DNA of 48,771 bases from Bacilli bacterium. GTDB lineage: Bacteria > Bacillota_I > Bacilli_A > RFN20 > CAG-826. The notes below the pieces were generated by a model. The model had not been told where the DNA came from. It saw only the letters and a list, made by a program, of their open reading frames with translations, and ran no database searches. The position numbers and the translations under genes are program-made. Shown in pieces: positions 7,502 to 18,789 of the stretch. Where the stretch lies: NCBI GenBank assembly GCA_045597865.1, contig JAZLKX010000021.1, forward strand, positions 1 through 48,771. The letters are read 5' to 3'. Position 1 is the stretch's first letter; the number at the start of each line of letters is the position of its first letter.

Positions 7502-7813
7502 ATGGCAAAAGTAAAAACCATTAGGGTTCGCTTACAAGCTTATGATCACAAGATTCTTGACTTAGCAGTTGAGAAGATCATTGCAGCAGCGAAAAAGACT
7601 GGGGCTGGTGTTGTTGGTCCTATTCCACTCCCTACAGAGAAGCAAGTTTACACCATCTTACGTGCTGTCCATAAGTACAAAGATGCTCGTGAACAATTCG
7701 AAATCAGAACACACAAGAGATTGATCGATATCACCAATCCAACTAAGGAGACCGTTGAAACATTACGTAAACTCGACTTAGCATCAGGTGTTGATATTGA
7801 CATCAAGCTATAA
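7502..7813 (+). CDS. rpsJ: 30S ribosomal protein S10
   Basis: [31 protein letters not shown]; SD AGGAGG places the start at 7502. Confidence 0.98.
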
Positions 7814-7827
7814 GGAGGTAAGACAAG

Positions 7828-8733
7828 ATGAAACAAATCATTGGTCGTAAAATGGGCATGACAGAAGTCTTCGCCAAAGACGGAACAATGTACGCAGTTA
7901 CAGTTGTCGAAGTACTTCCTAATGTCGTTACACAAGTAAAGACAGTTGAAAAGGACGGCTATGCAGCAGTCCAAGTCGGATTCGAAGAAAAGAAAGAATC
8001 CAAAGTTAACAAAGCCGAAAAGGGCCGTGCAGCAAAAGCAGGTGTTCCAGTATTCAAAGTACTCGGCGAAGTTAAAGGTGATGAAATGGCTAACTACAAA
8101 GTTGGCGATAAAATCACAGCAGACATCTTCAAAGCTGGTGATGTCGTTGACGTAATCGGTACCTCAAAAGGACGTGGTTACTTAGGCGCTATCCAACGTT
8201 ACAACCAACACATTGGTCCAAAAGGCCACGGTCACGGTTGGCACAGATTCGCTGGTTCAATGGCAAACTTAGGTCGTATCCAAAGAGTCACACCAGGAAA
8301 ACACATGTCTGGTCACCATGGTAACAAATCAGCAACCATCCTCAACCAATTAGTCGTTGAAGCAAATGCTGAAAAGAATTACATCTTAGTTAAGGGTTCA
8401 ATCCCAGGCGCAAAGAAATCACTCGTTGTTATTCGTAGCGCAATTAAGGCACAACTTGGTAAAAAACCATCAGTTGGTGAATTAGTTGATATTGAAGCCG
8501 AATTAAGAGCAGCAGAAGAAGCAAGACTTGCCGAAGAAGCAGCAAAGAAAGCAGCTGAAGAAGCCGCTAAGAAAGCCGCTGAAGAAGCAAAAGCTGCAGA
8601 AGAAGCTGCAAAGAAGGCCGCTGAAGAAGCAGCCAAAGCAGAAGCTGAAGCCGCAAAGGCAGCAGCAGAAGCTCCTAAAGCCGAAGAAGCTCCAGCAGCC
8701 GAACCAGTTGCTGAAGAAAAGAAAGGAGAATAG
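7828..8733 (+). CDS. rplC: 50S ribosomal protein L3 with ~93 aa C-terminal EEAAKKAA extension
   Basis: GRKMGMT, KDGYAAVQVG, VDVIGTSKGRG and VKGSIPG; position after rpsJ. Confidence 0.97.
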   Translation: MKQIIGRKMGMTEVFAKDGTMYAVTVVEVLPNVVTQVKTVEKDGYAAVQVGFEEKKESKVNKAEKGRAAKAGVPVFKVLGEVKGDEMANYKVGDKITADIFKAGDVVDVIGTSKGRGYLGAIQRYNQHIGPKGHGHGWHRFAGSMANLGRIQRVTPGKHMSGHHGNKSATILNQLVVEANAEKNYILVKGSIPGAKKSLVVIRSAIKAQLGKKPSVGELVDIEAELRAAEEARLAEEAAKKAAEEAAKKAAEEAKAAEEAAKKAAEEAAKAEAEAAKAAAEAPKAEEAPAAEPVAEEKKGE

Positions 8734-8736
8734 TTT

Positions 8737-9381
8737 ATGGCAGACAAGAAAATCTCATTAGACGTTCTCTCAATGGCAGGTGAAAAGGTTGGTACCGTTT
8801 CAGTCTCCGGATACGTCTTTGGTCAAAAAGAAGCTACTCAAGCAATGCATGATGCCGTTGTCGTGTATCAAGCAAACATGAGACAAGCTACTGCAAAAAC
8901 CAAAAAACGTGACGAAGTCTCAGGCGGTGGTAAGAAACCATGGAGACAAAAAGGCACAGGTAGAGCCCGTGCTGGTTCATCCCGTTCCCCAATTTGGGTC
9001 GGTGGTGGCGTTGTATTTGGTCCAACAGGTGATCAAAACTACACACTTAAACAAAACCGCAAGGAACATAACTTAGCATTACGCTCAGCATGGTCCATGA
9101 AGGTTAAGGCTCTTAAGATTGTTGACAAACTCGAAGTCGGTAAAAAGACAAAAGAAATGGTCGCAGTCCTCAAAGCCCTTAAAGCTGAAGGAAAAGTTCT
9201 CGTTGTTACTACATGTGATGCAGATAATGACAACTTATTCTTAGCAACAAAGAACATCGCAAACGCTGTATTAACATGCGCATGCAATGTCTCAGTCTAT
9301 GACTTAATGTACTTCGATACAATCGTTATGGACAAAGCAACCTTAAAGGTTGTTGAAGAAAGATTAGAGGAGGCAAAGTAA
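8737..9381 (+). CDS. rplD: 50S ribosomal protein L4
   Basis: EVSGGGKKPWRQKGTGRARAGS. Confidence 0.98.
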   Translation: MADKKISLDVLSMAGEKVGTVSVSGYVFGQKEATQAMHDAVVVYQANMRQATAKTKKRDEVSGGGKKPWRQKGTGRARAGSSRSPIWVGGGVVFGPTGDQNYTLKQNRKEHNLALRSAWSMKVKALKIVDKLEVGKKTKEMVAVLKALKAEGKVLVVTTCDADNDNLFLATKNIANAVLTCACNVSVYDLMYFDTIVMDKATLKVVEERLEEAK

Positions 9382-9382
9382 G

Positions 9383-9709
9383 ATGGCTGAAAAGAAAGCA
9401 AAAGTTGCATCAAAAGCAACAATCCATGACTTCGATGTTATCATCGAACCAGTCATTACAGAAAAAACTATGTCCCTCATGCAGGAACAAAATAAGGTAA
9501 CACTTAAAGTTTCACCAAAAGCAAACCGTGCTGACGTTAAGAAAGCATTCGAAAAGGTCTTCGGTGTTAAAGTTACCGGCGTTAACATTGTTAATGCTCC
9601 TGCCAAAGAAACCACAAGAGGTGGCCGTTATAAAGGCGTCATCTCCGGTTTCAAGAAAGCAGTCGTTACTGTCGCTGACGGACAAGCAATCGACTTATTC
9701 AAAGAGTAG
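9383..9709 (+). CDS. rplW: 50S ribosomal protein L23
   Basis: PVITEKT, FGVKVTGVN, KKAVVT. Confidence 0.96.
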   Translation: MAEKKAKVASKATIHDFDVIIEPVITEKTMSLMQEQNKVTLKVSPKANRADVKKAFEKVFGVKVTGVNIVNAPAKETTRGGRYKGVISGFKKAVVTVADGQAIDLFKE

Positions 9710-9746
9710 TCTGAAATAGGACTTACACATTATAGGAGGAAAAAAT

Positions 9747-10580
9747 ATGTCAATCAGAACATATAGTCCAACTTCCGCATCTCGCAGAAATATGACTAAT
9801 TTGACCTTTGACGAAATCACCAAATCAACTCCTGAAAAAAGTTTAACAGTTAAACTTAGCAAGACTGGCGGTCGTAATAACCAAGGTGTTATCACAACAC
9901 GTCATATCGGTGGTGGTCATAAGCGTCGTTACAGAGTTATTGATTTCAAGAGAAACAAAGATGGAATCGTTGGCACTATCAAAGCGGTGGAATATGATCC
10001 AAACCGTAACGCAAATATCCTTCTCGTTGTCTACGCAGATGGCGAAAAGAGATACATTCTTGCCCCACAAGGCTTAAAAGTTGGAGACAAAGTCGTCTCT
10101 GGCGAAAATGTTGATATTAAACCAGGCAATGCTCTTCCATTGAAGAATATCCCAGAAGGTACATTCATTCACAACGTTGAGCTCAGCCCAAAGAAAGGCG
10201 GACAAATGTGTCGTGCCGCAGGAACAAGCGCACAAGTACTTGGTTCTGAAGGAAAACACGTCATCTTACGTCTCGCATCCGGTGAAGTTAGAAAAGTTCT
10301 TGCTGAATGCCGTGCAACAATCGGTGTTGTAGGAAACGAAGACTTCATCTTAGTGAACAAAGGTAAAGCCGGAAAGAACCGCTGGTTAGGTATGAGACCA
10401 ACCGTACGTGGTTCTGTTATGAACCCTAACGATCACCCACACGGTGGTGGTGAAGGTAAATGTCCTGTCGGACGTGATGCACCAAGAACCCCATGGGGTA
10501 AACGTGCACTTGGCGTTAAGACAAGACGCAACAAACAACCTTCTACAAAATTAATCATTCGTAGAATCAATGACAAATAA
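9747..10580 (+). CDS. rplB: 50S ribosomal protein L2
   Basis: [30 protein letters not shown]. Confidence 0.99.
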
Positions 10581-10599
10581 TGAAAGGAGAATTTAGAAT

Positions 10600-10890
10600 A
10601 TGTCACGTTCAATTAAAAAAGGCCCATTCTGTGATGCATACCTTCTTAAGAAAGTAGACGCACTCAATGCAGCTAATAAAAAAGAAGTCATTAAGACTTG
10701 GTCACGTCGTTCAACAATTTTCCCATCATTTGTCGAACACACATTCGCAGTCTACAATGGCCGCGAACACATTACCGTCTATGTTACAGAAGATATGGTC
10801 GGACACAAGCTCGGTGAGTTTGCACCAACCAGAACCTTCAAAGGACACCACGGTAACAATGCGGAAGATAAGGCCGCAGCAGCTAAATAG
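10600..10890 (+). CDS. rpsS: 30S ribosomal protein S19
   Basis: [30 protein letters not shown]. Confidence 0.99.
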
Positions 10891-10901
10891 GAGGTAAGGT
10901 T

Positions 10902-11447
10902 ATGGCAGAAGAAAAGAAAACTGTAGCCAAAGCTCCAGCAGCAAAGAAAGCTCCAGCAAAGAAGCCAGTAGCAGCAAAAGCAGCCGCTCCTAAGAAAGTT
11001 GAAGCTCCAAAAGCTGAAGAAGTAAAAGCTGAACCAGCAAAAGAAGTAAAACCTGCAAAAGCAGAAAAGAAATCAGCCAAAAAGGTTGAAGAAAAACCTG
11101 CTAAACCAGTTGTTACCTCAGCAAAAGCAATCGCATACGATGTCCGCGTTACTCCACGTAAGGCACGCCTCGTTGTCGATTTAGTTAGAGGAAAAGATGT
11201 TAATGAAGCACTTGGAATTCTCTCCAATGTTAATAAAGCAGCTTCTCCAATTGTTGCAAAAGTTATTAAGTCAGCAGCATCAAATGCTATCAATAACTTC
11301 GGAATGCATGAAGATAAGCTCTATGTAGCAGAAATCTATGCTAATGAAGGCATTAAGATGAAACGTTTCCTTCCAAGAGCAAAAGGATCCGCATCAGGCT
11401 TAGTAAAAAGAACATCCCACATTACAGTTGTGGTTAAAGAAAGATAG
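10902..11447 (+). CDS. rplV: 50S ribosomal protein L22 with ~70 aa N-terminal Ala/Lys/Pro-rich extension
   Basis: Core VRVTPRKARLVVDLVRG...PRAKG...KRTSHITVVV; SD AGGAGGT precedes ATG 10902 and there is no Met near the core start. Confidence 0.97.
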   Translation: MAEEKKTVAKAPAAKKAPAKKPVAAKAAAPKKVEAPKAEEVKAEPAKEVKPAKAEKKSAKKVEEKPAKPVVTSAKAIAYDVRVTPRKARLVVDLVRGKDVNEALGILSNVNKAASPIVAKVIKSAASNAINNFGMHEDKLYVAEIYANEGIKMKRFLPRAKGSASGLVKRTSHITVVVKER

Positions 11448-11461
11448 GAGGAATTACTACA

Positions 11462-12136
11462 ATGGGTCAAAAAGTTAGTCCAGTAGGAATGCGTGTTGGT
11501 ATCAACCGCGATTGGCATTCAAGATGGTTTGCAAACGATCAAGAATTCGCAAAATTCCTTCACGAAGATATTAAAGTCCGTAAATATCTCACAAAAGAAT
11601 TAAAAGATGCTCTCGTCTCACATATTGAAATTGAAAGACGTAAAAATGACAAAGGACACGAAGTCGTCGTTATGATGTTCGTCGCTCGTCCAGGTGTCGT
11701 TATCGGACAAGACGGAGCAAAGATCAACGCTTTAAAGAAAGAAGTTGGTAAGATGCTCAAAGGTTCAACCGTTAGACTTGATGTCGTCGAAGTCAAACAA
11801 CCAGACTTAGATGCACAACTCGTCGCACAATGGATTGCTACCGAACTCGAAAACCGTGCATCATTCAGAACTGCTCAAAAGAAAGCTATTCAACGCGTTC
11901 GTAAAGCAGGTGCTAAAGGATGTAAGACCTTAATCTCTGGTAGATTAGGCGGTGCTGATATCGCACGTAGCGAAGGTTATAAAGAAGGAACAATTGCTCT
12001 TTCCACACTTCGTACCAACGTCGACTTCGCAATCGCAGAAGCTGTCACAGCATATGGTCGTTTAGGTGTTAAAGTTTGGATTTCCAAACCAGAACCAAAA
12101 CCAGAAGCAGAAGATGTCGTAAAGGAGGGCAGATAA
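11462..12136 (+). CDS. rpsC: 30S ribosomal protein S3
   Basis: [33 protein letters not shown]. Confidence 0.98.
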
Positions 12137-12137
12137 T

Positions 12138-12554
12138 ATGTTACAACCAAAACGTGTTAAATACCGCCGTCCACATGGCATTAAATATGAAGGCTTATCA
12201 AAAGGCGGTAACGAAGTTTCATTTGGTGAATTCGGATTACAAGCTGTTACAGGCGCATGGATCACAGATAGACAAATTGAAGCTGCTCGTATTGTCTTAA
12301 GCCGTTATACCAAAAAGGAAGGTAAAGTTTACATTCGTATCTTCCCACACTTAGCAAAAACTAAAAAACCAGCCGAAGTCCGTATGGGTTCCGGTAAAGG
12401 TAATCCAGAGCAATGGGTAGCCGTCGTTAAAAAGAACAGAGTTATGTTCGAAATGGGCGGTGTTCCAGAAGCAGACGCACGCGAAGCACTCCGTTTAGCA
12501 GCTTACAAGCTCCCAAATAAGTGCCGTGTCGTCGCAAGAAAGGAGAGTAAGTAA
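12138..12554 (+). CDS. rplP: 50S ribosomal protein L16
   Basis: [29 protein letters not shown]. Confidence 0.99.
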
Positions 12555-12556
12555 TC

Positions 12557-12754
12557 ATGAAAGTCGCAGAATTAAGAGAATTAACTGATGCAGAGTTAAA
12601 TGAAAAGATTTACTCCCTCAAAGAAGAATTATTTAATCTCCGTCGTAGAAAAGCCGTTGGCCAACTCGAACACGGTGAAGAAGTAAGAAGAGTTCGTAAA
12701 GATATCGCAAGAGCCTATATGGTTCAACGCGAAAGAGAACTCGGTGTCAAATAA
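12557..12754 (+). CDS. rpmC: 50S ribosomal protein L29
   Basis: [22 protein letters not shown]. Confidence 0.96.
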
Positions 12755-12767
12755 GGAGGATTAGACC

Positions 12768-13307
12768 ATGGAAAGAAATTTCAGAACATCACTTCAAGGC
12801 GTTGTAGTCTCTGACAAGATGGATAAGACAATTGTTGTCGAAGTCGAAACTCACAAAAGACACGCCAAATATCTCAAGCGTATTAAATATTCTAATAAGT
12901 ATTACGCGCACGATGAGAAAAACGAAGCCCACGTTGGTGACGTTGTTACCATTATGGGTTGTAGACCACTCTCAGCAACTAAACGTTTCCGCTTAGTCTC
13001 CATTGATCAAAAAGCAGCAGCATCCATTAAAGAAGCTGTCGAAGCAGAAAAGGCAATGGAAGCACAAGTAGAAGAAGTTAAAGCTGAAGTTAAGGTTGAA
13101 GAAAAAGTTGAAGCTCCAGTAGTTGAAGCTCCTAAAGCTGAAGAAGTAGCACCAGTTGCTAAAGAACCAGCCAAGAAGCCAGCAGCAAAGAAAGCTCCAG
13201 CTAAGAAAGCAGCTGCACCAAAAGCTGATGCAGAAGAAAAACCAGCAGCAAAGAAAGCTCCAGCCAAAAAGGCTCCAGCAAAGAAAGCTGCCGCTAAAGC
13301 TGAATAA
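12768..13307 (+). CDS. rpsQ: 30S ribosomal protein S17 with ~95 aa C-terminal extension
   Basis: [29 protein letters not shown] core, then [10 protein letters not shown] repeats. Confidence 0.97.
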
Positions 13308-13321
13308 GGAGGCACTAAATT

Positions 13322-13696
13322 ATGATTCAAAGAGAAACTAACTTAGTCGTCGCCGACAATTCAGGCGCACGTTCAGTAAGAGTCTTCAATATTAAAGGAG
13401 GCTCATTCAGAAAATCCTGTGGCATTGGTGACATCGTTACCTGTGCAGTAAAGGAAGCCATTCCAAACGGCCGTGTCCACAAATCTGATATTGTTAAAGG
13501 CATTATTGTTCGTACAAAACATGCTATCAACAGACCAGATGGTTCCCAAATCGCATTCGATGATAACGCAGTTGTCATTGTCGATAACGATGGAAACCCA
13601 GTAGGTACACGTGTCTTCGGACCAGTGGCAAGAGAACTTCGTGAAAAGGGCGAAGGCGCAATGAAAATTGTCTCCCTTGCTCCAGAAGTTTTATAA
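13322..13696 (+). CDS. rplN: 50S ribosomal protein L14
   Basis: [34 protein letters not shown]. Confidence 0.99.
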
Positions 13697-13710
13697 GGAG
13701 GACCTACATC

Positions 13711-14022
13711 ATGAAGATTTTAAAAGGTGATAAAGTCGTCGTTATTGCTGGTAAAGACAAAGGCAAAGAAGGCATTGTCCAAGCAGTTTATCCAAAAGTA
13801 AACAAAGTCGTTGTCGAAGGCGTTAACACACACAAGAAACACAAAAAACCAACTCAACAAAACCCAGAAGGTTCAGTTGTTGAAATGTATGTCCCAATCG
13901 ATGCAAGCAATGTTGCTATCGTCGATCCAAAAACTAAAAAAGCATCAAGAGTCGGTTATGGCGTTGACAAAGATGGTAAAAAAGTCAGAGTCAGCAAAGC
14001 ATCAGGCTCCAAGCTTAACTAG
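13711..14022 (+). CDS. rplX: 50S ribosomal protein L24
   Basis: [24 protein letters not shown]. Confidence 0.98.
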
Positions 14023-14033
14023 GAGGAAGCAAA

Positions 14034-14750
14034 ATGGCAGAAACCAAGAAACCTGCAGCAAAGTCTGCAGCAGTCAAGAAAACTACTGCTGCTTCTAAAC
14101 CTGCTACAACAAAAGCAGCTCCAGCAAAGGCAGCCGCACCAAAAGCAGTACCTGCTGAAGCAAAACCAGCTGTAAAGAAAGTTTCAAAAGGAAACAAGAA
14201 ACCAGCTCAAACAACTCGTTTACAAGAAAAGTACAATAACGAAATTAAGCCAGCATTAATTGAAAAGTTCCATTACGAATCAGTTATGCAAGCTCCAAAA
14301 CTCGAAAAGATCGTTATTAACATTGGTGTTGGCGACGCTCTTCAAGACAACAAAGCTCTTGATAACGCTGTTAGAGAATTAGCTCAAATCACTGGTCAAC
14401 AACCAGTTACAACAAAAGCTAAGAAATCAATCGCTACATTCAAATTACGTGAAGGCCAAGCAATCGGCTGTAAAGTTACATTACGTGGCTTACGTATGTA
14501 CGAATTCTTAGACCGTTTAGTCTCAATCGCGCTTCCACGTGTTAGAGACTTCCGTGGTGTAAGTAAGAACTCCTTTGATGGTCATGGTAACTATACCTTA
14601 GGCGTCAAGGAACAACTTATCTTCCCAGAAATTGACTACGATAAGGTCAGCAAAATCAGAGGAATGGACATTGTCATTGTTACAACAGCTAAGAAAGACG
14701 ATGAAGCCTATGCATTACTTGAAGCATTAGGAATGCCATTCCATAAATAA
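14034..14750 (+). CDS. rplE: 50S ribosomal protein L5 with ~60 aa N-terminal extension
   Basis: Core from RLQEKY; [30 protein letters not shown]; SD AGGAGG before ATG 14034. Confidence 0.98.
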
Positions 14751-14764
14751 GGAGGACGAATCAA

Positions 14765-14950
14765 ATGGCAAAAACCAGTATGAAGGTCAAATGTGCAAGA
14801 CCTAAAAAATTCAAAGTTCGTGAATATACTCGTTGTGAACGTTGTGGACGTCCTCACTCAGTTTATTCTAAATTCCATTTATGCCGTGTTTGCTTACGTG
14901 AACTCGCTTATAAAGGCGAAATCCCAGGCATGAAGAAATCAAGTTGGTAA
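14765..14950 (+). CDS. rpsN: 30S ribosomal protein S14, zinc-binding type
   Basis: RCERCGRP...[10 protein letters not shown]. Confidence 0.98.
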
Positions 14951-14971
14951 TCGATAGGAGGAAATATACAT

Positions 14972-15364
14972 ATGATGACAGATCCAATTGCAGATATGCT
15001 CACACGTATTCGTAACGCTAATGCTTTACGTTATGCCTCCGTCAGCATGCCATCTAGCAAAATGAAAGTTGAAATCGCAAAGATCTTACTCGAAGAAGGA
15101 TTTATTTCTGACTTCAAAGTCTCAGGCGATGTCAAAAAAGAATTAAACATTACTCTTAAATACGGAGCAAATGGCCAAAGAGTCATCTCCGGACTTAAGA
15201 AAATTTCAAAACCAGGCTTACGTGTTAACGCAGGCGCAAATAAACTTCCAAAAGTTTTAAATGGTCTTGGAATTGCAATTATCTCTACAAGCAAAGGAGT
15301 CGTAAGCGACAAAACCGCACGCACATTAGGTGTTGGTGGTGAAGTTCTTGCTTACGTTTGGTAA
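14972..15364 (+). CDS. rpsH: 30S ribosomal protein S8
   Basis: [29 protein letters not shown]. Confidence 0.99.
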
Positions 15365-15369
15365 TTATT

Positions 15370-15924
15370 ATGTCAAGAATTGGTTTAAAAGTTATCAATC
15401 TCCCAGCTGGAGTCACCATTAATCAAGCAAATGGTGTTGCAACCGTTACTGGTCCAAAAGGATCATTAACAGTCGCTGTTCCTGAAGTTATTACTGTTAA
15501 GGTTGAAGGAACAGAAGTTCATTGCTCACGCGCAAATGAATTAAAACACACAAAACAATTACACGGTACAGTTCGCGCTAACTTAGCAGATGCTGTTACA
15601 GGTGTTACAAGTGGATTCAAGAAAGAACTCACAATTGTCGGTATTGGTTATAGAGCACAAATGAGAGGAAACGACATCGTTATGAACGTTGGCTACTCCC
15701 ATGAAATCGTAATCAAACCAGAACCAACTGTTAAAATCTCATGCACAGACGCAAACAATATTGTCGTTGAAGGTATGTCAAAACAAGCAGTTGGACAAAC
15801 AGCCGCTTTAATTCGTGGTACTAGAGAACCAGAACCATACAATGGTAAAGGTGTTATGTACAAAGATGAACACATCATCCGTAAAGAAGGTAAGCGTGCT
15901 GCAGCTTCAGGCTCAAAAGCATAA
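15370..15924 (+). CDS. rplF: 50S ribosomal protein L6
   Basis: MSRIG, GPKGSL, GIGYRA, PEPYNGKG. Confidence 0.98.
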   Translation: MSRIGLKVINLPAGVTINQANGVATVTGPKGSLTVAVPEVITVKVEGTEVHCSRANELKHTKQLHGTVRANLADAVTGVTSGFKKELTIVGIGYRAQMRGNDIVMNVGYSHEIVIKPEPTVKISCTDANNIVVEGMSKQAVGQTAALIRGTREPEPYNGKGVMYKDEHIIRKEGKRAAASGSKA

Positions 15925-15942
15925 TAAAGGAGAAATTAGTTT

Positions 15943-16299
15943 ATGATAGTTAAAGAATCAAAGAACGTTGTCCGTGTTAGAAAACACGCACGTGTCAGAG
16001 CTAAAATCTCTGGAACAGCTAAATGCCCAAGACTTGTTGTCTTCCGTAGCAACAAGCACATTGAAGCTCAAATCATTGATGATGTTAAGGGTGTTACACT
16101 CTGTGCAGCATCATCAGTTGCATTAAAGCTTGAAAATGGTTCAAACGTTGAAGCTGCAAAGAAAGTCGGCGCCGCAATCGCAGAAGCCGCAAAAGCAAAG
16201 AAAATCTCTGCTGTTGTATTCGATCGTGGTGGTTATGTCTACCATGGCCGCGTTGCAGCATTAGCAGATGCCGCCCGTGAAGGCGGACTTAAGTTCTAA
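15943..16299 (+). CDS. rplR: 50S ribosomal protein L18
   Basis: [26 protein letters not shown]. Confidence 0.98.
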
Positions 16300-16310
16300 G
16301 GAGAAAAACA

Positions 16311-16976
16311 ATGGAAGAAGAAAAGAAATTAGAAGCTGCAGCAACTCCTGCAGAAAAAGCTCCTGAAGTTGCTCCTAAAGAACAACCTCATGGAGATCGC
16401 CCACACGGCGACCGTCCACACGGTGATAGACCACATGGTAAAGGTGATCGCCCACACGGAAAAGGCGACCGTAAAGGCCATGGTGATCGTAGAAACCGCG
16501 AAGAAGAACCAAAAGAATTCGAAGAAACCGTTGTCGAGATTAACAGAATTGCTAAGACCGTCAAAGGTGGTCGTAGAATGAGATTCTCCGCATTAGTCGT
16601 TATCGGAAACAAAAAGGGCAAATATGGATTTGGTACAGGCAAAGCTGCTGAAGTTCCAGATGCAATTAAAAAAGCTCTTGAAGCCGCAAAACGCAATACA
16701 TTTGAGATTCACATTGTCAAAGGTGGCACACTTGCTCACGAAATCGTTGGTAAGTTTGGCGCATGCAGTGTCTTCTTAAAACCAGCACCAGAAGGTACAG
16801 GTATTATTGCTGGCGGTCCAGTCCGTGCTATTCTTGAATTAGCAGGTATCCGTAACGTCACATCAAAGGTTTATGGTTCCCGTGCACCAATTAATATTAT
16901 TCGTGCAACACAAAATGGATTAACAAACCTTAAATCATATAAACAAGTCCAAGCATTACGTGCTAAAGCTGAATAA
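16311..16976 (+). CDS. rpsE: 30S ribosomal protein S5 with N-terminal PHGDR-repeat extension
   Basis: [38 protein letters not shown]. Confidence 0.98.
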
Positions 16977-16990
16977 GGAGGAAAAGGCGT

Positions 16991-17431
16991 ATGAAATTAA
17001 ACGAACTCAAAAACGTTAAAGGTGCTAAAACCGAGTCTTTCCGTAAAGGTAGAGGAATGGGATCAGGAAACGGCAAAAACTGTGGTACTGGTAACAAAGG
17101 TCAAAAATCAAGATCAGGCGGCTTAAAAGCTCCTGGATTTGAAGGCGGACAAACTCCTTTATACCGTAGACTTCCAAAATTTGGTTTTACAAATGGTGCT
17201 CATAAGGAATATGCAATTGTTAATGTAGGTTCCTTAAACAAATTCAAAGAAGGTACAGTTGTCACACCAGCAATGATGATTGATGCTGGACTCGTTAAGA
17301 AAGAATTTGATGGAGTTAAAGTACTCGGCAATGGCGAATTAACAGTTAAGTTAACCGTCAAAGCTTCCAAATTCTCAAAATCAGCAAAGGCTGCAATTGA
17401 AAAAGTCGGTGGCGTAGCCGAGGAGATCTAA
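16991..17431 (+). CDS. rplO: 50S ribosomal protein L15
   Basis: [31 protein letters not shown]. Confidence 0.98.
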
Positions 17432-17433
17432 GC

Positions 17434-18789
17434 ATGAAAAAAATCGCCTCAATCTTTAAAAACAAGGAAATCATGGGTCGTATAATGTTTACGATCATGA
17501 TTTTGCTTGTCATCCGAATTGGCGCGGCGATTACAGTTCCAGGAGTCACTGTTAGTGAAGACTTGAGCAATGCTATGAATAGCGCCAGTGCGGTCGCCCT
17601 CATGGATATGCTTGGCGGTGGAGCGTTACAAAACTTCTCCATATTCGCGTTAGGCGTATCCCCATACATTACTGCCCAAATTATCATCCAACTCTTACAG
17701 AAGGATGTTCTTCCAGCATTAACCGAGTTATCTAAACAAGGTCAATATGGTCGTAAAAAGACAGAGATGGCTACACGTTATCTCACGCTCTTACTTGGTG
17801 CAGTTCAAGCATATGGTATTATCAAGACCATGGAATCGCAACAATACGTTACGATTAACATGGATCTCAATTTCTGGACCTATGCTTACATAGTTACAAT
17901 TATGTTAGCAGGTGCCATGACAGTTATGTGGCTTGGTGACCAAATCACCGAGAAAGGTCTTGGTAATGGTATTTCTATGGTTATCTTCGCAGGTATCGTT
18001 AGAAGCCTTCCAATTCAAATTTCCACAGCATTCAAGACATGGATTGGCTCAGAAGGTATTTATAAAGAACCAACTTTACTTGTTAAAGGCTGGATTCAAT
18101 TTATCCTTTACCTCCTCTGCTTCGTCTTAATTCTTGCATTCGTTGTCTTCATCGAACTTGCAAAGAGAAAAATTCCAGTACAACATACAGGAAAATCTGG
18201 TGGCCAAACAGCCTCTATGGCGCGTGCGTCATTTTTACCTATTAAGGTTAATAGCGCAGGCGTTATCCCAGTCATCTTTGCTTCTTCAATCATGATGACC
18301 CCAACTGTTATCGCATCATTTATTACCACTGACACACCTGAATGGTTAAAAATCTTCTCTTACTCAGAGATGGTCGACATGGGTGGTGGAGTTAAGTTCC
18401 CATGGGGTTTAATTATTTACATTACCCTCATCGTCTTATTCTCCTTCTTCTATGCAACAATTCAGATCGATCCAGAAAACCTTGCAGAGAACTTCCGTAA
18501 AAACGGTAGTTATATCCCAGGTATTAGACCTGGTAACGAAACAGAAAGATACGTTAAGAAGGTTGTTAACCGCGTTACATGTATCGGTGCTATTGCACTT
18601 ACATTCATCGCAGCCTTACCAGTTATTCTTACCTTATCTGGAATCTTCGGCTCTAATACATCCTTAGCCATTGGTGGTACAGGACTTATCATTGCCGTTG
18701 GTGTCTCGTTAGAAGTTAATGATCAAATTAATGGCTTGCTTGCTGGTAAAACATTTGATGAAGTCCAGGCAACAGCCGGAAGGGAATAG
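17434..18789 (+). CDS. secY: Preprotein translocase subunit SecY
   Basis: SIFALGVSPYITAQII, ITEKGLGNGIS, AGVIPVIFA, IPGIRPG. Confidence 0.98.
   Translation: MKKIASIFKNKEIMGRIMFTIMILLVIRIGAAITVPGVTVSEDLSNAMNSASAVALMDMLGGGALQNFSIFALGVSPYITAQIIIQLLQKDVLPALTELSKQGQYGRKKTEMATRYLTLLLGAVQAYGIIKTMESQQYVTINMDLNFWTYAYIVTIMLAGAMTVMWLGDQITEKGLGNGISMVIFAGIVRSLPIQISTAFKTWIGSEGIYKEPTLLVKGWIQFILYLLCFVLILAFVVFIELAKRKIPVQHTGKSGGQTASMARASFLPIKVNSAGVIPVIFASSIMMTPTVIASFITTDTPEWLKIFSYSEMVDMGGGVKFPWGLIIYITLIVLFSFFYATIQIDPENLAENFRKNGSYIPGIRPGNETERYVKKVVNRVTCIGAIALTFIAALPVILTLSGIFGSNTSLAIGGTGLIIAVGVSLEVNDQINGLLAGKTFDEVQATAGRE

Follow-up and report, generated by a model that had tools for sequence, protein, structure and literature searches.

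We observed that five ribosomal proteins (r-proteins) encoded in a single operon of an uncultured Bacilli bacterium, uL3, uL22, uS17, uL5 and uS5, carry long low-complexity tails. The operon lies on contig JAZLKX010000021.1 of assembly GCA_045597865.1, which we analysed over its full 48,771 nucleotides (nt) and call the window; it is contig C21 of a 58-contig, 1.74-Mb assembly with a guanine-cytosine (GC) content of 35%. We consider it probable that these are translated, lineage-specific low-complexity tails on free r-protein termini, selected for their composition and changing the surface electrostatics of the ribosome. They are a known kind of feature, alongside the r-protein extensions of Mycoplasma pneumoniae and the low-complexity regions of other r-proteins, and not a new kind of system.

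Pfam domains and gene order both place the five tailed proteins among bona fide r-protein cores in an r-protein operon (Table 1). As a yardstick of length, solved chains of Bacillus/Staphylococcus-type ribosomes (PDB) were aligned to the window proteins. All five proteins outreach these chains by more than 20 residues at one end, with an excess of ~92 amino acids (aa) for uL3, ~68 for uL22, ~92 for uS17, ~59 for uL5 and ~55 for uS5. The excess falls outside the Pfam cores and is near the figures given in a preliminary description of this DNA. That description had also listed short tails on uL23, uS19, uS3 and uL6, but at 108, 96, 224 and 184 aa these proteins sit at the low or ordinary end among 72 related operons.

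The tails differ in charge and in predicted structure. Of the 90 residues counted in the uL3 tail, 35 are Ala, 24 Glu and 14 Lys, for a net charge of about −9 to −10. AlphaFold2, run on a 16-row alignment, predicts a single 57-residue helix at residues 222–278, with block values of the predicted local distance difference test (pLDDT) of 73–82 over most of it; the tip beyond the helix has pLDDT <50 and is predicted to be disordered. This predicted helix is Ala-rich, unlike the classic E/R/K make-up of single alpha-helix (ER/K-type) domains, and a search of the PDB with the uL3 tail alone returned 0 matches at E ≤ 0.01. For uS17 (18-row alignment) the prediction consists of a confident oligonucleotide/oligosaccharide-binding (OB) core, a helix at residues 87–111 (block pLDDT 55–71) and a remainder with pLDDT <50. 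The uL22, uL5 and uS5 tails are proline-rich, and their disorder is judged from composition, not from folded models. Disordered or helical tails on both subunits, as pictured in the preliminary description, thus agree with the predictions: helices in uL3 and proximal uS17, and a remainder that is partly predicted to be disordered. Its likening of the tails to the nucleic-acid-binding tails of histone H1 suits uL22 (net charge +11), uL5 (+13) and distal uS17 (+11), but does not extend to uL3 and proximal uS17, which are net acidic, or to the uS5 extension with its overall net charge of +1.

Judged from gene anatomy, the five extensions are translated. The extended ATG codons of uL22, uL5 and uS5 each lie 11 nt past the preceding stop codon and have an AGGAGG or AAGGAG site upstream; for uL22 the stop is that of S19, and for both uL22 and uL5 the site is AGGAGG. 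The strong Shine-Dalgarno sites reported earlier for the extended starts are therefore present. We searched these three genes for other in-frame ATG, GTG or TTG codons, beginning at residue 1 and going on for 15 codons beyond the start of the core, and found none, so that without the tail there would be no protein. At their other end, uL3 and uS17 have C-terminal tails that extend right up to the ribosome-binding site of the downstream gene. The last codons of uL3, encoding KKGE (window 8715–8736), are themselves the Shine-Dalgarno site of rplD (L4), and for this reason the ...KGE tip is retained in relatives even as the insert ahead of it varies. The overlap probably fixes the tip of the tail while inserts grow upstream of it. 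Two start sequences, MAEEKK and a second one of 16 residues, are kept across the genus. An alternative is that the tails are untranslated, being mis-called starts or read-through of spacers. The Ala/Lys-rich DNA of the tails is open in other frames too, with minus-strand open reading frames (ORFs) running over them, so an open frame alone proves little. Yet the lack of an alternative start in uL22, uL5 and uS5, the Shine-Dalgarno sites at the extended starts, the C-terminal tails that stop exactly at the next ribosome-binding site and the conserved MAEEKK-type starts all speak for translation, as does a ratio of nonsynonymous to synonymous substitution rates (dN/dS) below 0.35 in a frame that stays open through tails of different length. 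We regard untranslated tails as extremely improbable.

Next to their translation, the substitution patterns of the tails point to selection on the protein. In five close genome pairs, tail dN/dS was 0.12–0.32 versus 0.03–0.14 in the cores at equal dS; the pairs are not fully independent, as one genome was used twice. Protein alignments of five close pairs hold 11–50 gap columns in the tails versus 0–1 in the cores, and the tail indels are in-frame. On these ratios, the tails are under purifying selection, which holds composition and charge rather than exact sequence. The same conclusion had been drawn earlier from repeat units that differ at synonymous sites. All 20 tandem repeats between 7500 and 17500 have a period that is a multiple of 3 and match at 66–91%, which fits diverged units, but it is dN/dS that carries the case for selection: the comparison across species argues for protein-level selection more strongly than divergence among repeats does.

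To place the window among its relatives, we fetched 72 further operons and built a tree of 67 rows from ten concatenated core r-proteins (quick search, LG+G4; 7 of 74 loci, with fewer than 8 of the 10 markers, were left out). The N-terminal lengths of some relatives are inflated by upstream TTG, GTG or ATG starts and were corrected by hand in five obvious cases (uL5 of L167 and L177, uS5 of L038 and L166, uL22 of L044). In the window's genus, uL22 was matched in 30 of 37 genomes, and the open frame is at least 153 aa long in 29 of the 30. The exception is a 48%-identical uL22 copy on L062 (G022:C85), a 3.6-kb contig with tail-less r-protein genes 48–55% identical to those of the window; this contig is probably foreign to its genome. 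Within the family, the basal genera g23 and g34 (3 rows) have a median of 4 extra residues on uL22, 2 on uS17 and 0 on uL5. Their sister clade (40 rows; Shimodaira–Hasegawa-like approximate likelihood ratio test, SH-aLRT, 99) bears tails on uL22, uS17 and uL5, except for g22, which is without the uL22 and uS17 tails, and g36, which is without the uL5 tail. Tails of at least 20 aa are found in 39 (uL22), 39 (uL5) and 37 (uS17) of the 43 family rows; among the 24 rows outside the family, tails of at least 15 aa occur in 3, 10 and 1, respectively.

The other extensions are distributed differently. An extension of at least 30 aa on uS5 is present in 65 of 65 order operons with data, at 32–68 aa and with the same two-part make-up. 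On this comparison the uS5 extension is old and order-wide, and the HGDRP repeats alone are local. Long uL3 tails (at least 45 aa) were seen in 13 of 63 rows, as an EAAKK-type helix in the window's subclade and g27 and as acidic PVVEE repeats in g29, g35, g38 and family f5. The basic module of uS17 occurs in most, not all, of the window's genus, and g21 and g32 have a shorter form of it; other uS17 tails of the family consist of an acidic 'xxVKEAEAELKEE...' segment. Within a single genus, the length of the uS17 tail runs from 19 to 97 aa. The uL22 and uL5 tails are rich in Lys, Ala and Pro, those of uS17 and uL3 in Glu and Ala. Family-wide, charge per residue is +0.14 for uL22, +0.18 for uL5, −0.20 for uS17 and −0.09 for uL3, with a sign that is constant for each protein over about 25–39 operons. 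The median fraction of A, K, E, P, T and V is 0.79–0.95 in the uL22, uL5, uS17 and uL3 tails and 0.52 in uS5. Tails that were sporadic among relatives and unconserved in composition would have spoken against the preliminary description; instead, composition is kept and the tails recur in 37–39 of the 43 family operons. As far as these genomes indicate, the trait belongs to the lineage rather than to the window genome alone, is family-wide and fast-changing, and takes the form of a stepwise series with the window at its long end.

Similar tails were found on other proteins of the genome. A stretch rich in A, K, E and P (at least 80% in a 30-residue window) is present in 16 of the 1901 non-overlapping ORFs of the assembly, among them the r-proteins uL3, uL22, uS17, uL5 and uS2; the others include sigma-70, FtsH, FtsY, DnaX and a DUF2188 protein. 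In ten family genomes (loci L215–L224), the basic N-terminal tail of sigma-70, counted up to the conserved ESLDxIKKRL, is 10–20 aa long in the 4 genomes of g23 and g34 versus about 40–68 aa in the 6 tailed ones. This tracking of the ribosomal tails amounts to one branch of the tree and does no more than hint at a shared cause. With identities confirmed by Pfam, S4, S6, S7, S12, L9, L19, L20, L13, S9, S13, S11, L17 and S10 are of ordinary length; L35, L21, S15, S20, L28, S21, S18 and S16, which were identified only by eye, look ordinary in length too.

The termini of the five r-proteins lie at the ribosome surface in known structures, and the termini that bear the tails would likewise be solvent-exposed. 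The tails are built from short in-frame repeat units, and in-frame indels shift their length quickly. Those of uL22, uS17 and uL5 appear together, above the basal genera of one uncultured family of small-genome gut Bacilli, and grow further from there; the window's subclade gained the basic PAKKA module on uS17 and the 57-residue predicted helix on uL3. We propose that the basic tails rest on RNA or other polyanions, or stretch towards them, in a non-specific manner, and that the acidic helical arms could project outwards as spacers. Together, basic tails and acidic arms would alter the surface electrostatics of both subunits, and such a modified ribosome surface is the most likely role of the tails. 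The presence of the same habit on uS2, sigma-70, FtsH and FtsY would fit a shift in the protein make-up of the whole cell and not a device specific to the ribosome.

The main rival to this reading is near-neutral accretion, in which replication slippage of GCN, AAR, GAR and CCN codon repeats lengthens free termini, selection only purges harmful compositions and the tails have no specific role. We hold this to be a possible but not a favoured account. It would explain why every repeat period is a multiple of 3, why uS17 tails vary so much in length within one genus and why the same kind of tail sits on unrelated proteins of the genome. Several observations that weigh against our own reading also belong here. 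On the 67-row tree at least 4 changes of state are required for uL22 and for uS17, 7 for uL5 and 8 for the long uL3 tail, and such rapid turnover argues for weak constraint; tails were lost in the single genera g22 and g36, and compositions at the same uL3 site differ between genera. The joint gain of the uL22, uL5 and uS17 tails rests on essentially one branch, and independent-pair tests of joint gain had 2–4 usable pairs (7 for uL3 versus long uS17) and no power; given this, we claim no co-evolution of the tails. Nor do all tails move together, as uS2 is long in tail-less genera too (open frames of 329–365 aa). Translation, moreover, is deduced from gene anatomy and substitution patterns, low pLDDT is only a proxy for disorder, and the census of tails leaves aside L1, L10, L11, L7/L12, L27, L31 and L32, for which short sequence motifs gave no hit in the assembly. 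What near-neutral accretion accommodates poorly is a tail dN/dS well under 1, a charge sign kept for each protein and retention in most family operons. R-proteins are also among the most abundant proteins and hence the costliest to lengthen, an argument made in the available text of PMC6821194.

Two further ideas give the basic tails a function beyond translation. By analogy with H1, the Lys/Ala/Pro tails might anchor ribosomes, sigma-70, FtsH and FtsY to the nucleoid or to membranes, or link them to one another. Consistent with this, uL22, uL5 and distal uS17 have PAKKA-type repeats with a net charge of +11 to +13, the same module is present on sigma-70, FtsH, the DUF2188 protein and uS2, and the sigma-70 tail is short in genera without ribosomal tails. 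We nevertheless think tethering unlikely: the uL3 tails and most uS17 tails are acidic, the co-variation comes down to a single branch, and uS2 is long in tail-less genera as well. Quite unlikely, too, is a bolder version, in which one shift at the base of the clade put Lys/Ala/Pro tails at once on proteins of both subunits (uL22, uL5, later uS17) and on sigma-70. In this version the tails would be a shared polycationic label that, in a very small cell, gathers the machineries of transcription, translation and membrane insertion on its RNA or nucleoid, at distances set by the acidic helical arms of uL3 and uS17; FtsH and FtsY of this genome bear similar tails. The preliminary description had also suggested compensation for ribosomal RNA (rRNA) helices or r-proteins lost during genome reduction. 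The genomes are small (0.8–2 Mb), and no L30 gene lies between S5 and L15. Yet the 16S of the window's genome (contig C28) is 1522 nt long and covers model positions 1–1533, and the part of its 23S present in the assembly covers model positions 712–2912 in about 2180 nt. Aligned 16S sequences of two tailed and two tail-less genomes differ by indels of 1–10 nt only, in both classes, and complete 23S genes measure 2898 and 2862 nt in tailed versus 2842 and 2897 nt in tail-less genomes. A search for rpmD (L30) between S5 and L15 (window 16976–16991; no search was made elsewhere in the genomes) found it absent from 64 of 64 order operons, tailed or not, with an S5–L15 gap of at most 48 nt in all 64. 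Both rRNAs are of full length with and without tails; neither half of the suggestion is borne out by these comparisons, and we judge compensation very unlikely.

Extensions of this general kind have been described before. In M. pneumoniae, 11 of 52 r-proteins carry extensions of more than 20 aa, mostly predicted to be disordered, and r-protein extensions are reported to be common throughout bacteria and to affect fitness when disrupted (Xue et al. 2022, Nature, PMC9534751, as far as its available text goes). The earlier remark that single extensions occur in mycoplasmas was therefore incomplete. As in the window, many r-proteins of this small-genome, Bacilli-related organism have a terminus that extends past its E. 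coli counterpart by more than 20 aa, and the extensions, on both subunits, are mostly predicted to be disordered and in a few cases helical. Alignments of M. pneumoniae uL3 (287 aa) and uS5 (219 aa) reach into the tails of their window counterparts. In contrast, uS17 (85 aa) and uL5 (180 aa) of that organism lack an extension, and its uL22 (159 aa) aligns from its own residue 6, which puts the extra part at the C terminus instead of the N terminus. The Lys/Ala/Pro repeats of the uL22, uL5 and distal uS17 tails are likewise unlike the M. pneumoniae extensions.

Low-complexity regions are frequent in prokaryotic r-proteins, where they are dominated by A, E and K, mostly C-terminal, located at the ribosome surface and conserved (Ntountoumi et al. 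2019, Nucleic Acids Research, PMC6821194). In the available text of that survey, those of uL3 consist mostly of Ala and Glu, as in the window, and uL22, uL5 and uS17 are not singled out; three of the window's five tails are N-terminal, unlike most of the regions surveyed. Actinobacterial chains in the PDB (mycobacterial and Cutibacterium) include extended uS5 (213–220 aa), uL22 (152–197 aa) and uS17 (135 aa). These hosts are GC-rich and unrelated to the window's organism, and two of the extensions sit at the opposite end. The alignment of uL22 begins at chain residues 8–20, leaving its extra part C-terminal, and that of uS17 spans chain residues 56–134, leaving its extra part N-terminal. The uS5 chains of M. 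pneumoniae and the actinobacteria (213–220 aa) align into the window's uS5 extension. Among the PDB matches listed, no bacterial chain carried a long tail at the N terminus of uL22 or uL5 or at the C terminus of uS17, and N-terminal extensions were organellar only. Mosquito RpS6 and RpL23a bear histone-H1-like, Lys/Ala-rich tails on r-protein cores, according to the accessible part of a review (PMC11764897); these are eukaryotic and evolved independently in different proteins, and no common ancestry with the window tails is implied. A limited literature search found no description of the tails of this lineage.

The family offers a well-resolved natural series, in which the same r-proteins range from tail-less to about 100 extra residues. 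With a charge sign fixed for each protein and modules added stepwise, the series makes the role of bacterial r-protein extensions more tractable, as tails could be swapped or deleted in the ribosome of a cultivable relative and compared along it. It also carries a warning for annotators: the long N-terminal starts appear to be the true ones.

Table 1 Features of the tailed r-proteins, their operon and other tailed proteins of the genome. Positions are those of the window unless a contig is named.
Feature	Position	Strand	Basis or properties
S10-spc ribosomal protein operon	7502..17431	+	ORFs; Pfam r-protein cores in 20/20 proteins
uL3, 301 aa	7828..8733	+	Pfam PF00297; solved chains 206-220 aa, align at 2-208
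uL3 C-terminal tail, residues 213-301	8464..8730	+	Composition, segment charge, AlphaFold2
uL22, 181 aa	10902..11447	+	Pfam PF00237 at 76-179; solved chains 109-118 aa, align at 73-181
uL22 N-terminal tail, residues 1-72	10902..11117	+	K 21, A 20, E 10, P 9; net +11
uS17, 179 aa	12768..13307	+	Pfam PF00366 at 11-77; solved chains 80-88 aa, align at 2-85
uS17 proximal tail, residues 85-131	13020..13160	+	Acidic, net -7; first part predicted helical
uS17 distal tail, residues 132-179	13161..13304	+	Basic PAKKA-type repeats, net +11, 7 Pro; predicted disordered
uL5, 238 aa	14034..14750	+	Pfam PF00281 and PF00673 at 83-236; solved chains 173-180 aa, align at 61-238
uL5 N-terminal tail, residues 1-59	14034..14210	+	A 19, K 15, P 7, T 5; net +13
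uS5, 221 aa	16311..16976	+	Pfam PF00333 and PF03719 at 70-217; solved chains 154-168 aa, align at 62-220
uS5 N-terminal extension, residues 1-61	16311..16493	+	Acidic start 1-25 (net -3), then HGDRP-type repeats 26-61 (net +4)
SecY	17434-18789	+	Directly after S10-spc operon
Sigma-70, with N-terminal 58-aa tail	G000 C25:308218-309561	-	Lys/Ala/Pro(/Glu) low complexity
FtsH, with C-terminal tail	G000 C40:65506-67680	+	Lys/Ala/Pro(/Glu) low complexity
FtsY, with N-terminal tail	G000 C57:7551-8756	+	Lys/Ala/Pro(/Glu) low complexity
DUF2188 protein, with N-terminal tail	G000 C39:2495-2902	-	Lys/Ala/Pro(/Glu) low complexity
uS2, 366 aa, with C-terminal tail	G000 C57:21459-22559	+	Lys/Ala/Pro(/Glu) low complexity; Pfam core 40-254; tail ends in PAKKA repeats

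The operon has the gene order S10, L3, L4, L23, L2, S19, L22, S3, L16, L29, S17, L14, L24, L5, S14, S8, L6, L18, S5, L15, with spacings of 1–37 nt between genes and a Shine-Dalgarno site ahead of nearly all of them. Genome sizes in the order are 0.6–2.4 Mb, and the nearest named records are metagenome-assembled genomes from gut or rumen labelled Bacilli, Bacillales, Mollicutes or Erysipelotrichaceae. The assembly contains foreign pieces (contigs C14, C31, C45, C54 and C58) with GC-rich ORFs, in agreement with its stated contamination of 5.4%; among these, C31 holds a second partial S5/L15 pair and C54 a second partial 16S.

At the DNA level, the tails share several words. The uL22 and uS17 tails have an exact 23-nt word in common and are 81% identical over 54 nt, and the starts of uL22, uL5 and uS5 are 72–75% identical over 53 nt; uL22, uL5, uS5, uL23 (window 9383) and uS2 (L142) all start with MAE(E/T/K)KK-type residues. 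An identical 20-mer closes both uS17 (13293–13312) and uS5 (16962–16981), and the codons for the AKAE ends of these two proteins, like those for the end of uL3, double as the Shine-Dalgarno site of the gene that follows. Third-position GC is only 0.16–0.20, and because it is so low the same peptide repeat is often written in the same codons; gene conversion or copying between tails and codon bias are not distinguishable as sources of the shared words.

Public sequencing runs, used in the form of Logan contigs only, contain near-identical sequences. Contigs of one DNA run and of RNA libraries that belong to three studies cover 30 of 30 bins of the region including the tails. Coverage of the tails by contigs from RNA libraries shows their presence only and is proof of neither transcription nor translation. 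Joints between different tails in these contigs have sides of less than 30 nt and were taken as repeat mis-joins. In the contigs of all 4 public runs, the uL5 tail carries an in-frame 3-nt AGC insertion behind position 14143, a strain-level length variant.

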